Of a stretch of DNA of 17,248 bases, positions 37-6,947 are shown piece after piece. The number at the start of each line of letters is the position of its first letter. The first letter of the stretch is position 1. The DNA is from a virus (lineage: Duplodnaviria; Heunggongvirae; Uroviricota; Caudoviricetes), in IMG/VR virus record IMGVR_UViG_2778261313_000007. One strand, given 5' to 3'. Position numbers and translations under genes: made by a program. The notes under the pieces were generated by a model. It worked only from the letters and a program-made list of their open reading frames with translations, was not told the DNA's origin and did no database searches.

Positions 37-1446
37 TTAAGTGATAACAGATGTCTGGAAATATAGGGGCAAATCCAAGAATGGAGCACGGTCACGAGTT
101 ACATCAGAGATATCGGAATAACCTAAACCATTTTTGTTAGCAACAACAACACGACGGTTAAAGGTAATGCCGCCAGATGTGTGACGAACAACATTAACGT
201 TATTAGCGTAGGTATCAAGGACACCATCACCGTTTTGTTTAAATCCAGTATCACTATCGCCTAAAACAATAGAATTTCCACCCAATCCGTTAGCAACACC
301 AACACCAAAACCGCTATTAAACTTAGGAATGGTTGCATCCTGACTAATAGACAGTTGGGGAGCGTTAATTTTACCGTTTACGCTAAACTCGATTGCGGTA
401 GTACCAGGACCGCCAGCACGCTGTGTGTAGAAATGCCAGCCGCTTTCATCTGCGCATTCTAATACTTGTTTACGAGTATCATTACCCCATGCACGAATAT
501 TGAAGCTAGATTGTCCGGTATTCTTACCCCATCTCATTTGACCAGCAACTTCAAGATCACCTAAGAAATATGCCTTTAGTCCACCTGTAGCCATATTACG
601 TTCGGTGCTGAAATGGCGACCTTTGCTGTCTTCGAGGTATAAAACGTTATCACGGGCGTTGTTGCTATCGCCCCAATGATTAAATCGAATATAATCACGC
701 GATCCAGAACGCCCAGCGTCGAAAGTCAAAAAACCTTTCTTAATGTAAACGTCATTACTAAAACGAGCGGCACGGCTTGCACGTTCTAACGTTAATGCAT
801 CTTCGTTACCATCACCGCCTAATTGAACGTTACCGGAAGTCAGATCATAAATGAATGGTCGATAAGTATTCCAACCACCAAACTTATCGTTTTCAGCCGT
901 TGACAGAAGATAAACTTTTGCGGAGTCATTGCGCCAAAATGCACCATAATTGCCGTAAATCATACGGAATGCATTTGAGTTAGCAGCTACATACTCGCCG
1001 TTTGTATATACAATTTTAGTTGCACCAGTGGTAATAGAGCATTGACCGTTAGCTTCTAGCTGAAATGAGTTTTTCCCCTGATCGCTATACCATTGGAAGT
1101 TATTTGTTTCAGCACTACCAAAACCAATCCAACCTTGACGAGCATTAGCACCATTGCGGCGGTCTTGCCATTCAATATAGTTTGATTGATTACTAGGACG
1201 CTCTAATCTAAGAACGTTTTGTCCGGCATCAAATACACCTTTACCAGTAAACATGGTGCGACCAGTGATTCGTAGAACTTCGCTAGAATCGGTAGTACCA
1301 GTCGCTAAACGATAAACGTTACCTTGAACAGTTTCATGCCAGATTGTTTCTGCGGCTTTACTACGGAATTTACGAAGATATTTTTTACCAGTACCTGAAT
1401 CGTTATTCAAACTGACAATATCATATGTACCCTGTCCGTTTATCAA
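37..1446 (-). CDS. tail fibre / receptor-binding protein (distal fibre)
   Basis: 468-codon ORF ending at TAA 37-39. G/N/S/T/D-rich composition typical of fibre tips. Overlaps the upstream fibre gene by 26 nt. The only start near the 5' end is TTG at 1444-1446 (no in-frame ATG for about 60 codons) and there is no clear SD, so the start is uncertain and may be translationally coupled. Confidence 0.6.
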   Translation of the reverse strand: MINGQGTYDIVSLNNDSGTGKKYLRKFRSKAAETIWHETVQGNVYRLATGTTDSSEVLRITGRTMFTGKGVFDAGQNVLRLERPSNQSNYIEWQDRRNGANARQGWIGFGSAETNNFQWYSDQGKNSFQLEANGQCSITTGATKIVYTNGEYVAANSNAFRMIYGNYGAFWRNDSAKVYLLSTAENDKFGGWNTYRPFIYDLTSGNVQLGGDGNEDALTLERASRAARFSNDVYIKKGFLTFDAGRSGSRDYIRFNHWGDSNNARDNVLYLEDSKGRHFSTERNMATGGLKAYFLGDLEVAGQMRWGKNTGQSSFNIRAWGNDTRKQVLECADESGWHFYTQRAGGPGTTAIEFSVNGKINAPQLSISQDATIPKFNSGFGVGVANGLGGNSIVLGDSDTGFKQNGDGVLDTYANNVNVVRHTSGGITFNRRVVVANKNGLGYSDISDVTRDRAPFLDLPLYFQTSVIT

Positions 1447-3082
1447 ACATCAACGTTCCGGCCTTGTTTTCGGTGTTGAACATTGTAATAACACGTCCAT
1501 CTGTAACACCAGTAGACGGCTTAACGTTAGTCATAGCTGGGGTGTCATGAACAGTCAGTGAAACACCGCTAGTCTTACCATATTCGACAATAACGTTATC
1601 AGTATAACGACCGTAGTTAACGTAAATGTCGTAGTTATCACCGGAAGTATTAACCGCAAATACTTGATGAACGTTCAAAGAGTTTCGACGATAAGCAGCA
1701 ATACTAACGCCTTTCGGGTTATTGTTACCGGAACGGATAACAATTTCAAGGAAATCAACCTGATCATAGGAGTTAACGTTATAACCATTACCACCGAAGA
1801 TACGAAGCATTACCATACGACCATTTTGTGGGATCGTAGCCGTAGCAATCTTGAAATAAGCACGGGATTCACTACCAGAAGGAACAGACATTGTGACATT
1901 TTTAATAAACATCTTATCAATTTCGCCTTTGGTATATGCGCCAATTTCAGCAGGAGTCGGTTTATCCCCTTCGTGATACATTTTATAGCTAAACGCTTTT
2001 TGTCCCTGAGCATCAAAACCATAGGTTTCAACACGAGATCCGCCAGACGCATAACGGAAAGTAAATCCTCGACCATGCGCTTTACCGGAAGAGTGAGGAA
2101 CGTTAAGGGTTAGATCCATGAGTCCATCTTGACCATTGGTACGGAATGCACCGAAGTAATTAAGATCTCTCGCGGTTGAATCTTCCAGATAGTTACCAGT
2201 CTTGCTATACAAATACGCGCCGTGATAGGTCTTTGTGTTCTTCTTGATATATGCTGCGTTAGCACTACCTTCAATACCATCAATTCGCTTGTTGGCGGCT
2301 GTAATTGCGGCATCGGTCGATGATTTGTTCTGGTCTACCTTGTTGTTAATAGCGGTATGGTTACTATTCACAGTGCCAGTAAGGTTACTGATTTTAGTAT
2401 CAGCATCTTTCTTGTTGTCGGAAACGACCTTTTCAATCGCTGTTTTGTTAGCTGCAACCGTGCTAGTTAAGCTAGAAATTTTGTTATCTGCATCGGTTTT
2501 ATTTGCAGTAACAGTTTTAGTTAAGTTGCTAACGTTGGTGTTAGTGGTATTAACCTTGTTGTTAATCGCGGTGTTATTGTCAGTGACCGTTTTCGTTAAA
2601 GCTGCATGTTTGCTATCTGCATCAGATTTGTTTGCGGCAACGGTTCTTTCAATTGCGATCTTATTCGCAGATACGGTCCCCGTAAGGTTATTGATCTTAG
2701 TGTCGGCATCGGTTTTATTTGCCGTAACTGTCTGGGTTAAGTTACTAACAGTGGTGTTGGTAGCATCAATGCGCTTATTGGTTGCGGTGTCTTTAGCGGT
2801 AATAGTCTGATTCAGTTCAGCTTTAACACTAGCCAGATTATTAGCGGCCTCTTGTTTGTTGGAAGCAATAACACGGTCAGTGCTAGTTTTATTCTGGTCT
2901 ACTTTCGTGTTAAGTTCAGCGTGTTTTTCTGGAGAAACAGAGATTTGAACTACTGCGTTATTTTTATCTTTGGTATACAGAACGTGATCAGCAAGGTTAA
3001 TAGCCAATTCACCCTGTGATAATTGTTCCGGCGTTGGTTTTTTACCAGCCGTTTGTGTGCGTTTAAATTGGATTGATTGCAT
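1421..3082 (-). CDS. tail fibre protein with T/N-rich repeat shaft
   Basis: ATG at 3080-3082 preceded by GAGGTGA SD, stop TGA 1421-1423. N-terminal motif KKPTPEQLSQGELAINLADHVLY. Central repeats of about 14 aa (TVTANKTDADTKINNLTGTV and variants), visible as DNA-level repeats across roughly 2300-2900. C-terminal globular domain. Confidence 0.7.
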   Translation of the reverse strand: MQSIQFKRTQTAGKKPTPEQLSQGELAINLADHVLYTKDKNNAVVQISVSPEKHAELNTKVDQNKTSTDRVIASNKQEAANNLASVKAELNQTITAKDTATNKRIDATNTTVSNLTQTVTANKTDADTKINNLTGTVSANKIAIERTVAANKSDADSKHAALTKTVTDNNTAINNKVNTTNTNVSNLTKTVTANKTDADNKISSLTSTVAANKTAIEKVVSDNKKDADTKISNLTGTVNSNHTAINNKVDQNKSSTDAAITAANKRIDGIEGSANAAYIKKNTKTYHGAYLYSKTGNYLEDSTARDLNYFGAFRTNGQDGLMDLTLNVPHSSGKAHGRGFTFRYASGGSRVETYGFDAQGQKAFSYKMYHEGDKPTPAEIGAYTKGEIDKMFIKNVTMSVPSGSESRAYFKIATATIPQNGRMVMLRIFGGNGYNVNSYDQVDFLEIVIRSGNNNPKGVSIAAYRRNSLNVHQVFAVNTSGDNYDIYVNYGRYTDNVIVEYGKTSGVSLTVHDTPAMTNVKPSTGVTDGRVITMFNTENKAGTLMFDKRTGYI

Positions 3083-4005: not shown

Positions 4006-4428
4006 TTAAAAACGCGCTAGATAAGAAAATTTAAGGCTAAGTGTCCCAACGATACCCCCATCACTAGAATCATCGTCATAATCGGTATTAGAGGCTACTG
4101 GAGTGATATCTGAAATAGAGAAGCCCAAATCTTTAAAACGTGGGTTATCCGGCTGAATCTGGATTATCTGGCAAATACCCTCATGGATTTTTGTTTCATG
4201 AATCTGAGAATATAATTGCATTTCGATAACGCATTCAGCTTGCATTGCATTACCACCACGGACCCTAGTGTAAGTCTCATTCATGCCAGTAATCCAACAA
4301 ACCACGTCATCACTAAAACCTTGCTGAGTTTGTTCTACGTTTAAAGCCAGACCTAAATCTTGTTCGATAATATCTTGCAAGGCGCGTTTGATTTTCAGTC
4401 TAGGCATATTATTAACGGTAGCGAGCAT
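4006..4428 (-). CDS. hypothetical small virion protein (head completion / head-tail connector candidate)
   Basis: ORF-track ORF 4006..4476 trimmed to the ATG at 4426-4428 (MLATVNN...), which has a GGGGG SD 5 nt upstream. Overlaps the stop of the upstream gene, suggesting translational coupling. Role inferred from position after the capsid gene only. Confidence 0.45.
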   Translation of the reverse strand: MLATVNNMPRLKIKRALQDIIEQDLGLALNVEQTQQGFSDDVVCWITGMNETYTRVRGGNAMQAECVIEMQLYSQIHETKIHEGICQIIQIQPDNPRFKDLGFSISDITPVASNTDYDDDSSDGGIVGTLSLKFSYLARF

Positions 4429-4702
4429 GTGTACCCCCTGCCAGAGTAATAAAGCAATCAGTGGTATTATCACCATTGCGCTTAACGTATTGAACTTTGA
4501 AACGCTGGTTTTCTACAATGACAATATCACCCTGATTTAAGTCTCCCTCACGACAGAATAGAAATTCGGTTTCTGTCATTACCCCCGATTCGTCGGTAGT
4601 AGTAATTTCATGATAAGCACGAATTGATTTACCACCTTCCACCGAAAATACAGGAGCACTCTTAAACATTCTTGATAATTGTGATTCTGATAATTTGAAC
4701 AT
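4412..4702 (-). CDS. hypothetical small virion protein (head completion / adaptor candidate)
   Basis: ORF-track ORF 4412..4747 trimmed to the ATG at 4700-4702 (MFKLSE...), preceded by AAGGGGG SD. Sits just downstream of the capsid terminator. Role inferred from position only. Confidence 0.45.
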   Translation of the reverse strand: MFKLSESQLSRMFKSAPVFSVEGGKSIRAYHEITTTDESGVMTETEFLFCREGDLNQGDIVIVENQRFKVQYVKRNGDNTTDCFITLAGGTHARYR

Positions 4703-4731
4703 AGTTACCCCCTTTATGGAGTATTTACATA

Positions 4732-4758
4732 CAAAAAAGCCCCGCACTAGGCAGGGCT
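4732..4758 (-). terminator. rho-independent terminator downstream of the capsid gene
   Basis: Minus-strand RNA AGCCCUGCCUAGUGCGGGGCU (7-bp GC-rich stem including one G-U) followed by UUUUUU (plus-strand A-run 4732-4737). Confidence 0.65.
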
Positions 4759-4892
4759 AATTATCATTCTTTAGGCTTGCGGCCTCGTTTTGCTGTGGCT
4801 TTCGCCGTAACCGTCTGGGATTCTTCTTCCGGTTTAGGAATCAGATTTTCTTCCCCCGAATCGGGGGAAGGTTCAGAAGGTTCTACAGGAGT

Positions 4893-6947
4893 TCAGTCAA
4901 CTTTTTTCTGAACTACGGTCAGTGCGCTATGGTCCATAACAGCCCAATCCAGATCAGCCCATACACGGAAGTACAGGTTGCCAGCCGCGCGACCTGTGGT
5001 ATCGTCGCAATCCAGTTCCAGCGATCCGAAGTCTGCAACAACAAGGGAGCTAAAGTCACCAAACAGCATGGTATCCTGAGCAACTACACCAGAGCCATAG
5101 ATCGGACGGTTAACCAGTTTATCGCCTTCTACCAGGAAGCCCGGAACATTAGCTGCTTTGAGTTGCGCTGCCAGTTCAGCTTTAACAACACCACGGGTAG
5201 CAAATGCCAGATCCGCTTCGTTATAACCTTTGTCGGTCAGTTCAGCTACCAGTTTCAGGAACTCGGCATAGGTCCAATCAATCTGTTTAACTTTGCCAGC
5301 GTCGGTCAGGATCTTAGTCAGACCATCACGAGCGTTAGTGTTAGCAGCATTGGACAGAATCGCTTTTTCCAGAGCGATAGCACTGTGTTTCAGCATGTGC
5401 TCACCAACGATAGCGCCAATATTGGGCAGTGTGATTGCAGCCTGACGCGTTACAGGAACAATTCCGTTAAAAGTCTTGAGAGTCATCGGCTGCGCTGCAA
5501 ACTTAATAGTACCTTCACCAGCGGATTGACCTTCTGCAACAAAACCGAAGTTTTCCAGATTGCTGGAAGTCAGAGACGGCAGAGAAACAGGACCAGTTGC
5601 GTTAATGGTACGCACACCCAATTTACCCAGAATAGAACGTTCCATGATCATATCAACGAAGCAATCATGGCGGATTTCTTCACCAACTACTGGTTTCAGA
5701 GATTCCATGTTCTGGCTAGCACGCAGAGCGGACGCCGGAATGAATACGGAGTTAGAACGCTGCGCACGACCACGCGCTGCGGCTTTACGTGCTTCTTCCT
5801 GAGAATATTCAGCTTCTGCGCCAGTCAGGGCTTTACCCTCTGCGATTGCACGTACAGCTTTATTAAGATCGAAACGGGATTCCAGAGTTTTAATGGTATC
5901 GGTCATGGTAATTTTTCCTTTAACAAAAGTTTTAGATTCGGTAGTATTTAGTGCGCGTGCTTTTTCTTTAAAATTTTCAATAGTCACGGCACTATCTTTA
6001 ATTGCAGCTTCAATCACGTCTTCGGAGATATTTAGATGTTTTCCGATAGCACGAATTTCGGCGGTATCTTCGCGAGAACGTTCAAACGGTTTTTCTTCGT
6101 CTTCAATCTTTTCTTCTTCGACTGGTTCGGATGTATTTTCCGTTTCGTCGTTCTCGTCTGTATCTTTATTTAGTTCTTCTGTTTCTTCCGGTTCATCTTC
6201 GGAACGTTCTTCTTTTTCTTCTGGCGTTACTTCTTGCGGTTCTTCCACATCTTCGCCACTGTCAGCACTATTTCCAGAATCGGAATCAATTTCTTCATTT
6301 TCTTGTTCCTCTTTCTCTTCTTCGGAACGTTTTTCTTCATCTTCCGGTTTAATTTCTTCGACCGGAGTATCTTTAATTTCGTCTTCCACTTGTTCACCCT
6401 CCAAAACAATCATTTCGTTGTCTGTATTTAGAGAGCGTCCAACACCCGCATTAAATGGATCTGCGGCACACGTTACAAGACTGCATTCGAAAGGTTGCCA
6501 GCGTGTAACATAATAGATCCCTTTGTTAAAATCGGCTTTGCCATCAAGAACGTTATAACCGACGCTAACTTGTGAAAGTGTTCCCTCTTTTACCTTCTCA
6601 AAGCATTCATTAGCCAGTTGGCCTACTTTGGAGAATTGGACAAGGCAACGACCTACACGGTCTTCGTCAATACGAGCGGAGCCAGGAACAATCTTGCCGA
6701 TATGAAGATCCAGATTGTGATTAAACAGAAGACTTGCGTTAGTCTCGTTTAAAACGGATAGATCAACCGCTGATTCATCGTGTACGAGAATCTCTTTTAA
6801 TTCGACTTGCTCGCCGTCCTGATTCATGTAATAACGTGTATAAGGAGCCTCGCTTGAGAAAGCCAATTCAATAATTCGTTCGTCTTTTTCTTCGATAAAA
6901 TCAGGGGTATCTACCGCAACACTACGACGGAATTGTTTTGTTGTCAT
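4893..6947 (-). CDS. prohead protease / acidic scaffold-like linker / HK97-fold major capsid protein fusion
   Basis: ATG 6945-6947 with AAGGTGA SD, stop TGA 4893-4895. N-terminal roughly 180 aa resemble a caudoviral prohead protease. A middle stretch of about 100 aa is extremely E/D-rich (DNA roughly 6077-6392). The C-terminal roughly 330 aa have an HK97-type capsid pattern. Sits immediately after the portal gene. Domain assignment is from recollection of family patterns, not a search. Confidence 0.75.
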   Translation of the reverse strand: MTTKQFRRSVAVDTPDFIEEKDERIIELAFSSEAPYTRYYMNQDGEQVELKEILVHDESAVDLSVLNETNASLLFNHNLDLHIGKIVPGSARIDEDRVGRCLVQFSKVGQLANECFEKVKEGTLSQVSVGYNVLDGKADFNKGIYYVTRWQPFECSLVTCAADPFNAGVGRSLNTDNEMIVLEGEQVEDEIKDTPVEEIKPEDEEKRSEEEKEEQENEEIDSDSGNSADSGEDVEEPQEVTPEEKEERSEDEPEETEELNKDTDENDETENTSEPVEEEKIEDEEKPFERSREDTAEIRAIGKHLNISEDVIEAAIKDSAVTIENFKEKARALNTTESKTFVKGKITMTDTIKTLESRFDLNKAVRAIAEGKALTGAEAEYSQEEARKAAARGRAQRSNSVFIPASALRASQNMESLKPVVGEEIRHDCFVDMIMERSILGKLGVRTINATGPVSLPSLTSSNLENFGFVAEGQSAGEGTIKFAAQPMTLKTFNGIVPVTRQAAITLPNIGAIVGEHMLKHSAIALEKAILSNAANTNARDGLTKILTDAGKVKQIDWTYAEFLKLVAELTDKGYNEADLAFATRGVVKAELAAQLKAANVPGFLVEGDKLVNRPIYGSGVVAQDTMLFGDFSSLVVADFGSLELDCDDTTGRAAGNLYFRVWADLDWAVMDHSALTVVQKKVD

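Follow-up and report, generated by a model that had tools for sequence, protein, structure and literature searches.

Does the capsid gene of this prophage really end at its annotated stop codon, or do some ribosomes read through it? The stretch of DNA that we analyzed (17,248 nucleotides; "the window") includes a major capsid gene that ends with TGA. The initial annotation had noticed that the same reading frame stays open for another 42 codons, up to the tandem stops TGA TAA, and it proposed programmed readthrough, which would yield a minor, C-terminally extended form of the capsid protein. Our comparison of relatives, from which all of the support comes, points the same way: selected readthrough of the UGA, giving minor tailed species of both the capsid and the tail-tube proteins, is probably the right explanation.

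The capsid gene and the open frame behind it

The window is from an E. coli prophage and is 100% identical to strains 39EVA and HCP5S3_I4; in 39EVA (NZ_CP138416), the capsid gene is at 1227553-1229607. The prophage is about 35 kb and is inserted in codB. Its genes include those for a tail tube and a tail tip protein, a serine recombinase, and a terminase and portal of the lambda type. Of 5,426 complete E. coli genomes, 54 (about 1%) have matches to the window. There does not seem to be a close cultured phage: a megablast search of 50,697 phage records was empty, and the best tblastn match was 33% identical. Two scans of species-representative genomes gave no match either. The prophage also contains a long tail-fibre-like gene (37-3082 in the window; 28415-31780 in L140, the E. 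coli 39EVA prophage) with a T4 gp34-type trimerisation domain and with matches to distal long-tail-fibre PHROGs. Its position, between the head-completion genes and the tail-tube gene, is unusual. At about the same position, the relative L088 has an annotated "phage head spike fiber domain-containing protein," which is a pseudogene there.

The capsid gene encodes a fusion protein in which an acidic, scaffold-like linker connects a prohead protease (S78) to an HK97-type capsid domain. It matches Peptidase_S78 and Phage_capsid from Pfam and PHROG 617 (major head protein). Among solved structures, it matched just one distant capsid, 8gta (E = 3e-12). The region that separates the protease and capsid domains (capsid residues ~170-350; window 5900-6450) is very acidic and of low complexity, is rich in Glu, Asp, and Ser, and is presumably a built-in scaffold or delta domain. 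RefSeq labels the gene as "phage major capsid protein" and ends the CDS at the TGA; the spacer is not annotated.

On the minus strand, the gene's 3' end reads ...GTT GAC TGA, and the 42 codons after it (Table 1) encode a low-complexity sequence. Its N-terminal part (TPVEPSEPSPDSGEENLIPKPEEESQTV) is an acidic, proline-rich linker, similar in composition to the acidic region within the capsid protein, and its C-terminal part (TAKATAKRGRKPKE) is a Lys/Arg-rich tail, with 4 to 6 Lys/Arg residues at the end. As described initially, a terminator follows the tandem stops immediately: its stem (4758..4738, and then the T-run) begins 2 nt past them. The palindrome that had been noticed within the extension (CCCCCGATTCGGGGG, 4867..4853) is there as well. 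The next gene starts with ATG at 4702, preceded by a GGGGG ribosome-binding site.

Table 1. Locations of features around the end of the capsid gene, and of the second copy of the module
Feature	Position	Strand	Basis or remark
Major capsid gene, 684 codons + TGA stop at 4893-4895	4893..6947	-	ORF list, translation
Candidate leaky stop, UGA + A (UGA-ACU)	4892..4895	-	Sequence context
In-frame extension, 42 sense codons	4767..4892	-	TPVEPSEPSPDSGEENLIPKPEEESQTVTAKATAKRGRKPKE
Branched RNA structure (predicted), from 10 nt after UGA	4809..4882	-	Fold z-score -4.0 vs shuffles
Strong hairpin, CUUCCCCC-GAU-GGGGGAAG	about 4850..4870	-	Predicted; covers the palindrome at 4853-4867
Small hairpin, GGC-GAAA-GCC, in the tail-coding part	4797..4806	-	Present in all capsid and tail-tube copies
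Tandem stops, TGA TAA, closing the extension	4761..4766	-	Sequence
Intrinsic terminator: 8-bp G+C-rich stem, 5-nt loop, T-run	4731..4758	-	Terminator scan
Next gene, 96 aa (RefSeq CDS)	4412..4702	-	Weak similarity to head-tail attachment protein
Tail-tube gene end + extension	L140 31837-32470 (E. coli 39EVA prophage)		~5.2 kb beyond the window start

How surprising is an open frame of this length? The probability of 42 stop-free codons by chance is (61/64)^42 = 0.13, so the initial estimate of roughly one in ten was fair. Within the same prophage, the frame stays open for at least 41 codons past the stop for 9 of 34 genes, mostly because it runs into the next gene. Given both numbers, the single sequence is not significant, and evidence beyond chance comes from relatives only. 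The initial annotation also stated that no other frame of the spacer is open. This holds for the other two frames of the minus strand, which contain stops, but not for the antisense strand, where a 44-codon ORF is open across the spacer (4777..4911, + strand). Antisense frames are open in many relatives too, because the sense strand is rich in A and G.

Could frame 0 be an independent small gene? We rejected this because there is no start codon with a ribosome-binding site. (Most relatives have an in-frame TTG, and the window has TCG there.)

The stop codons of the prophage single out two genes. Of the 34 genes, 27 end with TAA and 7 with TGA, and TGA-A is found in just two of them, the capsid and tail-tube genes. 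Both of these stops are followed by 41-42 open codons.

The frame is kept in relatives and recurs after the tail-tube gene

A check that had been suggested is whether the open frame and its phase are conserved in relatives. To find relatives, we used the downstream 96-aa gene as the anchor, so the sample is unbiased for the spacer. All 50 of the loci that we fetched this way (36 from IMG/VR and 14 from metagenomes) kept the TGA-A, an open in-frame extension, and tandem stops. The layout is GAN-TGA-A, a stop-free extension, TAA TAA (or TGA TAA in the window's type), and the terminator. Four further E. coli genomes, picked for low similarity, have the same layout, and one of them adds a 27-codon form. 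Across all of the capsid loci that we fetched, TGAA was present in 122 of 122 (a count that includes repeat fetches of the same contigs). In one locus (L049, IMGVR_UViG_2529292882_000018), the extension ends with TAA TAA TAA, a 3-nt slippage in the stop repeat.

These loci include 31 distinct extension sequences of 27-45 codons. They fall into seven length classes (81, 84, 99, 126, 129, 132, and 135 nt), each a multiple of three, and none has an in-frame stop. We identified six gap events within the extension (48, 27, 3, 3, 3, and 6 nt). The 58-62 non-coding nucleotides after the stops have 11 variants, with differences of 1-2 nt in the terminator loop and in runs of A and G. The terminator is kept in all of the relatives, with changes of 1-3 nt in the length of its loop. 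Of the six frames, frame 0 is the only one that is open in all 31 variants. Stops occur at 4 positions in frame +1 and at 8 in frame +2, all of which are polymorphic, and every variant has stops in both frames.

The extension is also shared by quite different capsids. Two capsid lineages that are 37-39% identical over their last 300 residues, one ending with ...ALTVVQKKVD (the window's type) and the other with ...ALKVLHISAE (the common type), share GAN-TGA-A and the same extension in frame. Nucleotide similarity between the two lineages starts at the last codon before the TGA. In other words, the junction of a mosaic falls right on the capsid stop (window 4893-4900; also in L005, L006, L036, and others), where capsids that are ~39% identical as proteins are joined to an extension, terminator, and downstream gene that are 83-90% identical as DNA (for the long forms). 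Linker and tail variants are shuffled among capsid types as well (for example, in L076 and L084). In some copies of the prophage, there are mobile elements near the capsid module (L086 4314-5144; L089 1-659 and 3711-4679), namely a GIY-YIG nuclease gene and copies of IS903B, and strain HCP5S3_I4 has IS2 within the capsid region. The extensions of the copies with mobile elements are still in frame.

A homologous module follows the tail-tube gene, which is outside the window. This gene ends with ...QQIFTAG and TGA-A, and 41 codons follow in frame (TNEELPLPEPEPLPEHEAVVIPEVEEVTAKATAKRGRKAKN). The extension is closed by TAA TTT TAA and by a terminator of the same type as the capsid gene's. Among 24 relatives that we fetched via the tail-tube protein, all 24 have TGA-A and the open frame. 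The extension has 15 distinct sequences, which are 36, 39, or 41 codons long and differ by gaps of 6 and 15 nt; the spacer past the extension ranges from 41 to 43 nt. A 17-nt core (ACGGCGAAAGCCACAGC) occurs exactly twice in the prophage, and a search of IMG/VR with a 21-nt degenerate core (ACGGYGAAAGCCMCAGYWAAA) matched only contigs that were already known for this prophage family. The window's capsid tail, KRGRKPKE, resembles the tail-tube copy more closely than it does the other capsid copies, which suggests that the capsid and tail-tube modules may have exchanged sequence.

Between the two copies, there are 46 distinct variants in 10 length classes, all multiples of three, and without an in-frame stop. 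There are two limits to this evidence. If the duplicated cassette carries its own TGA, then finding the extension in frame after the second gene as well is only partly independent as evidence. Also, deletions between triplet repeats of the GAA type might by themselves lead to multiples of three, with no need for translation.

What does the extension correspond to in more distant relatives? In Salmonella and beyond, the UGA and the linker are absent, and a Lys/Ala-rich tail is the capsid's own C-terminus. A Salmonella capsid that is 85% identical ends with ...ALTVVEKAAAARGK (EKAAAARGK) and TAA TAA, and the terminator comes directly after; another, ~50% identical, ends with ...CLRVMKAPAGRSK (KAPAGRSK) and TAA. 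Distant relatives (31-36% identical) end with ...NKATAAGK and two stops, or with ...GTPAEAKAAKQ or ...GTPAEVKAALKASA and a single stop. The tails of the extensions (TAKATAKKVGRPPKAK, KAPAKKVGRPPKAK, and TAKATAKRGRKPKE) are of the same kind. Since these relatives end directly in a similar tail, the E. coli lineages look as if a UGA and a linker were inserted before the family's usual tail.

Some of the distant relatives from IMG/VR (L125, L126, L130, L133, and L136; capsids 31-36% identical to the window's) have an early TAA and then an Ala/Lys-rich tail in the -1 frame. This tail sits just past an in-phase run of A, within the last ~100 nt of the capsid gene and the spacer. In L126, the run is CAC GAA AAA AAG ACG, with a dnaX-type A_AAA_AAG heptamer, and in L130 it is GAA AAA AAA GCC. 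In sister sequences that are 88% identical to these loci, the tail is fused directly. The tails in the -1 frame may reflect -1 frameshifting, transcriptional slippage, or loss of the tail.

The fused tails of relatives raise the possibility that a nonsense mutation cut off a longer C-terminus and that the leftover has not yet degraded. The frameshift-separated tails of some distant relatives could likewise be losses, and the extension diverges at about the neutral rate: the long forms differ from the window's by 10-17%, which is similar to the synonymous divergence of the neighbouring gene. However, the repeated indels all keep the frame, the arrangement is common to ~39%-identical capsids and to the tail-tube gene, and, as described below, a new hairpin evolved after a deletion. 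The arrangement is also intact in all 54 of the spacer-matching E. coli genomes and in all of the anchor-fetched loci from IMG/VR and metagenomes. We therefore consider a decaying remnant to be very improbable.

RNA structure and coding constraint

The extension is predicted to form a branched RNA structure (Table 1), which includes a second hairpin, UUCC-N6-GGAA, besides the strong one. Relative to shuffled sequences, the z-scores for folding are -4.0 for the window, -5.9 for the short form, -4.4 for the common long form, and -3.3 for the tail-tube copy. In all of these, which include three unrelated sequence versions, the predicted structure begins 10-11 nt after the UGA. (Classical stimulators are a few bases closer to the stop than these hairpins.)

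Substitutions in the relatives fit the predicted structure. Across 23 long variants, 4 of 54 paired positions are variable, as compared to 21 of 45 unpaired positions (P = 1.3e-5, Fisher exact test; the structure was predicted from one of these variants). The short form, which arose by the 48-nt deletion, has a new and unrelated 11-bp hairpin (AAUUGCCGGAA-GAAA-UUCCGGUAGUU) at the same distance from the UGA. This hairpin has one compensatory change, from U-A to C-G, and three one-sided changes that keep a standard pair (with one cell unpaired). The small hairpin GGC-GAAA-GCC has one compensatory change as well, from C-G to A-U, in L086. Most of the compensatory or pair-keeping changes also change amino acids. 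Judging from these patterns of substitution, the RNA fold of the extension is under selection. In VGRPP-type tails (such as L077, L083, and L027), the segment GGTGG-GACGT-CCACC forms a hairpin too, and two variants of this type have GGCGG...CCGCC, a compensatory change from T-A to C-G that also changes Val to Ala. The window's tail does not have this hairpin; instead, a smaller one (AGGC-CGCAA-GCCU) is predicted at 4773-4785.

Is the peptide under selection? In the capsid copy, the variable sites are spread evenly across codon positions (14/20/18), dN/dS is ~0.8, and there are 10 synonymous and 22 non-synonymous changes, with 24% synonymous expected, so synonymous changes are not enriched. The residues of the capsid extension are barely constrained and the RNA stems are constrained; the lack of codon-position bias arises because the RNA fold is selected. 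The avoidance of stops by substitutions alone is not significant in the capsid copy (simulated P = 0.38), and the invariance of the TGA has little power as a test, since that codon allows just one neutral change. In the tail-tube copy, the third codon position is the most variable (4/5/10). In frame 0, 8 changes are synonymous, 11 are non-synonymous, and 0 involve a stop, where 24% synonymous would be expected; the corresponding numbers for the other two frames are 2/11/6 and 4/13/2. These counts give a weak coding signal for the tail-tube copy, and it seems somewhat better than for the capsid copy.

These results bring up another explanation: the module could be a structured 3'UTR and terminator cassette, with a role in stabilizing or processing the mRNAs for the two proteins that are needed in the greatest amounts, or as the source of a 3'UTR-derived small RNA, and its open frame would be incidental, a legacy of an old coding tail. 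This would account for the stems being the most conserved part, for compensatory changes being made at the cost of amino-acid changes, and for the lack of codon-position bias in the capsid copy. It would also fit the location of the cassette after the capsid and tail-tube genes, with a strong terminator included, and the mosaic junction exactly at the TGA. But an incidental frame would not account for the lengths of the indels: all eight events in the two copies are multiples of three, and yet 1-nt indels do occur in the spacers beside them. Nor would it account for the lack of in-frame stops, which are absent from all 46 distinct variants even though stops come and go in the other two frames. 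It also leaves unexplained why synonymous changes are in excess in frame 0 after the tail-tube gene, and why the weakest stops are at the start of the extension and the strongest at its end. In addition, an Rfam scan did not match any family, SECIS models included (although Rfam may lack an enterobacterial fdhF-type model). Overall, we think that a cassette with an incidental frame is unlikely.

Alternatively, translation of the extension might matter and the peptide might not. Ribosomes that pass the UGA would reach the stops by the terminator and disturb its hairpin, which would couple the decoding of UGA to downstream transcription. In both copies, the tandem stops are 0-2 nt from the terminator stem, and it is the frame that is kept, rather than the residues, along with an invariant UGA. 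On the other hand, if a few percent of ribosomes pass the UGA, no more than a similar share of transcripts could be affected, and relatives that have a normal stop beside the terminator manage without this arrangement. Furthermore, such coupling does not explain why the basic tail is conserved or why it is a real C-terminus in relatives. This explanation seems to us quite improbable, more so than the incidental frame.

If the UGA is read through, then the structured RNA is a candidate stimulator of readthrough, but it could equally serve the stability of the mRNA.

Proposed readthrough at UGA-ACU and its likely product

The stop context is reminiscent of phage Qbeta. The coat gene of a phage of the Qbeta group (Qubevirus, NC_001890) ends with TAC TGA ACT GCA and the window's capsid gene with GAC TGA ACT CCT, so the six bases UGA-ACU are shared. 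The NC_001890 record annotates the A1 protein as a readthrough product, and the extension in A1 starts out proline-rich. In Qbeta, the coat's UGA is read as Trp about 1 time in 15-20 (PMC8067240). The module described here would thus parallel A1 of Qbeta and the alloleviviruses in several ways: a major coat gene that ends with UGA-ACU (as read in the Qubevirus record), a minor and C-terminally extended coat made via Trp (proposed here), a proline-rich start to the extension, and E. coli as the host. Otherwise, A1 is quite different: its extension is a globular domain of ~195 residues that is needed for infection, and it belongs to an RNA phage with an unrelated coat fold. Here, a linker and basic tail of 27-45 residues would be added to the HK97-type capsid of a tailed DNA prophage, and to its tail tube too. 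In sequence, the extension does not resemble the read-through domain of A1, so it is an analogue that lies outside the A1 protein family.

How much readthrough might be expected? Of the three stop codons, UGA leaks the most in E. coli, and it is usually decoded as Trp (PMC10570021, PMC11126739). In K-12, basal readthrough of UGA is ~2% at 37 °C and 4% at 25 °C, and reflects competition between Trp-tRNA-Trp and RF2 (PMC10570021). But RF2 with Ala246, which is the wild-type form in natural E. coli, where K-12 has Thr246, terminates efficiently at UGA-A, and with it, the readthrough products of K-12's nudL and pheL are undetectable (PMC5373646). Readthrough at UGA-A may therefore produce little protein, unless it is stimulated by the RNA structure downstream. 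Useful readthrough of stop codons is considered rare in bacteria (PMC5373646). Incidental readthrough in E. coli, as at nudL, pheL, and rpsG, does resemble what we propose in that tRNA-Trp competes with RF2 at a UGA, which is UGA-A at pheL (PMC5373646, PMC11126739). Unlike the extensions described here, those are not known to be conserved or useful, and their products vanish with wild-type RF2. Also, in E. coli genes, a back-up stop tends to come soon after a leaky TGA (PMC11126739), whereas here 27-45 codons stay open.

We infer the following scenario. Most ribosomes would terminate at the capsid's UGA-A. A small fraction would decode the UGA; near-cognate tRNA-Trp would compete with RF2, so that Trp is the residue most likely to be inserted, and the structured RNA that begins 10-11 nt past the UGA might stimulate this. 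These ribosomes would add 42 codons and halt at the tandem stops beside the terminator. With Trp inserted, the junction peptide would be VD-W-TPVEPSEPSPDSGEENLIPK. The product would be a minor capsid protein with a flexible, acidic, and proline-rich linker and a Lys/Arg-rich tail like the one that is constitutive in relatives. The tail-tube module would act alike, so that both the head and the tail would carry a few such tails, which would probably be on the outside of the particle.

We searched 5.8 billion proteins with the capsid's C-terminus joined to W and the extension, and found three partial Salmonella capsids only, without the extension. Hence, no natural version with a sense codon was found, which is weak evidence, as the search also missed existing E. 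coli RefSeq capsids. Comparing the extension to Pfam and PHROG did not give any matches except for AT_hook, a motif with a GRP core between basic residues, and these were below threshold: VGRPPKAK tails score 13-14 bits (E = 0.04-0.07) against a cut-off of 17.4, and neither the window's tail, KRGRKPKE, nor QRKTKE tails match at all. Since every score is below the curated threshold, we rejected the assignment as an AT-hook motif.

Which way would the tails face? In T7 10B display, in encapsulins, and in the C-terminal domains of tail tubes, the C-termini face outward. The same is true of the P22 coat protein, which has the HK97 fold (PMC9962691). By analogy, a few outward-facing basic tails would be expected on each head and tail. 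If the head has T=7 symmetry (~415 capsid subunits, which we assumed for a genome of ~35 kb), then readthrough at 0.25-2% would give ~1-8 tailed subunits per head. Our guess is that the tails provide weak electrostatic adhesion to polyanions of the cell surface or to DNA.

Other viruses make extended capsid proteins in different ways. The initial annotation likened this case to phages that extend their capsids by frameshifting, and the likeness holds for function but not for mechanism. In T7 and T3 (gene 10A/10B), Lactobacillus phage A2, and Listeria phages PSA, A118, and A500, a fixed minority of the major capsid protein is extended by recoding at the end of the gene (PMC5009743). A2 and PSA extend the major tail protein too, just as we propose here for head and tail (PMC5009743). 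However, those systems use a -1 or +1 shift at a slippery site and often add Ig-like domains, whereas the extension here continues in the zero frame after a stop, does not need a shift site, and is a short and probably disordered basic tail. We rejected a frameshift-derived extension because frames +1 and +2 are closed in every variant. The CP-RTD proteins of luteovirids and solemovirids are another parallel: the coat's stop is read through into a proline-rich hinge, the minor species is surface-exposed, and downstream RNA elements stimulate readthrough (PMC9553062). In contrast to the proposal here, they involve eukaryotic ribosomes, a UAG stop, long-range RNA interactions, and a large readthrough domain.

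Superficially, a UGA with a hairpin behind it also looks like the layout of bacterial selenoprotein genes, so we considered specific recoding of the UGA, whether by selenocysteine insertion with a SECIS hairpin, by a suppressor tRNA from the phage, or by an altered genetic code. But the Rfam scan found neither SECIS nor anything else. The loops (GAUUY and GAAA) differ between variants, we take both to be unlike the fdhF-type loop that SelB binds, and the sequence of the hairpin is wholly different between the long and short forms. No tRNA gene was found in the window and none is annotated in the prophage. Finally, the other genes do not contain an internal TGA and are intact under table 11, and TGA is an ordinary stop in five others. 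Given the lack of a SECIS match, of a tRNA gene, and of internal TGA elsewhere, we rejected selenocysteine and code reassignment, and specific recoding as a whole is extremely improbable.

Returning to selected readthrough, a broader reading is that UGA-ACU, structured RNA, an acidic linker, a basic tail, strong stops, and a terminator form a portable module that is attached to both of the abundant virion proteins in a family of E. coli siphophages and would give each particle a few basic "whiskers," with a tail that is AT-hook-like in some variants. We would give this reading an even chance. Sister lineages may reach the same type of tail by -1 frameshifting, or carry it constitutively.

Recoding at the ends of capsid and tail genes is a known route to a minority of decorated subunits, and the cases that have been described in tailed phages use frameshifting. 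In the literature, we found no description of UGA readthrough in the capsid gene of a tailed phage or of programmed stop-codon readthrough in a tailed dsDNA phage, and no report of a bacterial RNA structure that stimulates readthrough. If our explanation is correct, then the strategy of Qbeta would extend to dsDNA phages, and a prophage in about 1% of complete E. coli genomes would offer a genetically tractable system, which would permit a test of whether downstream RNA structure stimulates readthrough by bacterial ribosomes. It would also mean that genome annotation has missed a component of the virion, and the head and tail might each offer a natural site for display at low copy number. Even without translation, the extension is still a structured RNA cassette that is conserved after the two most highly expressed late genes.
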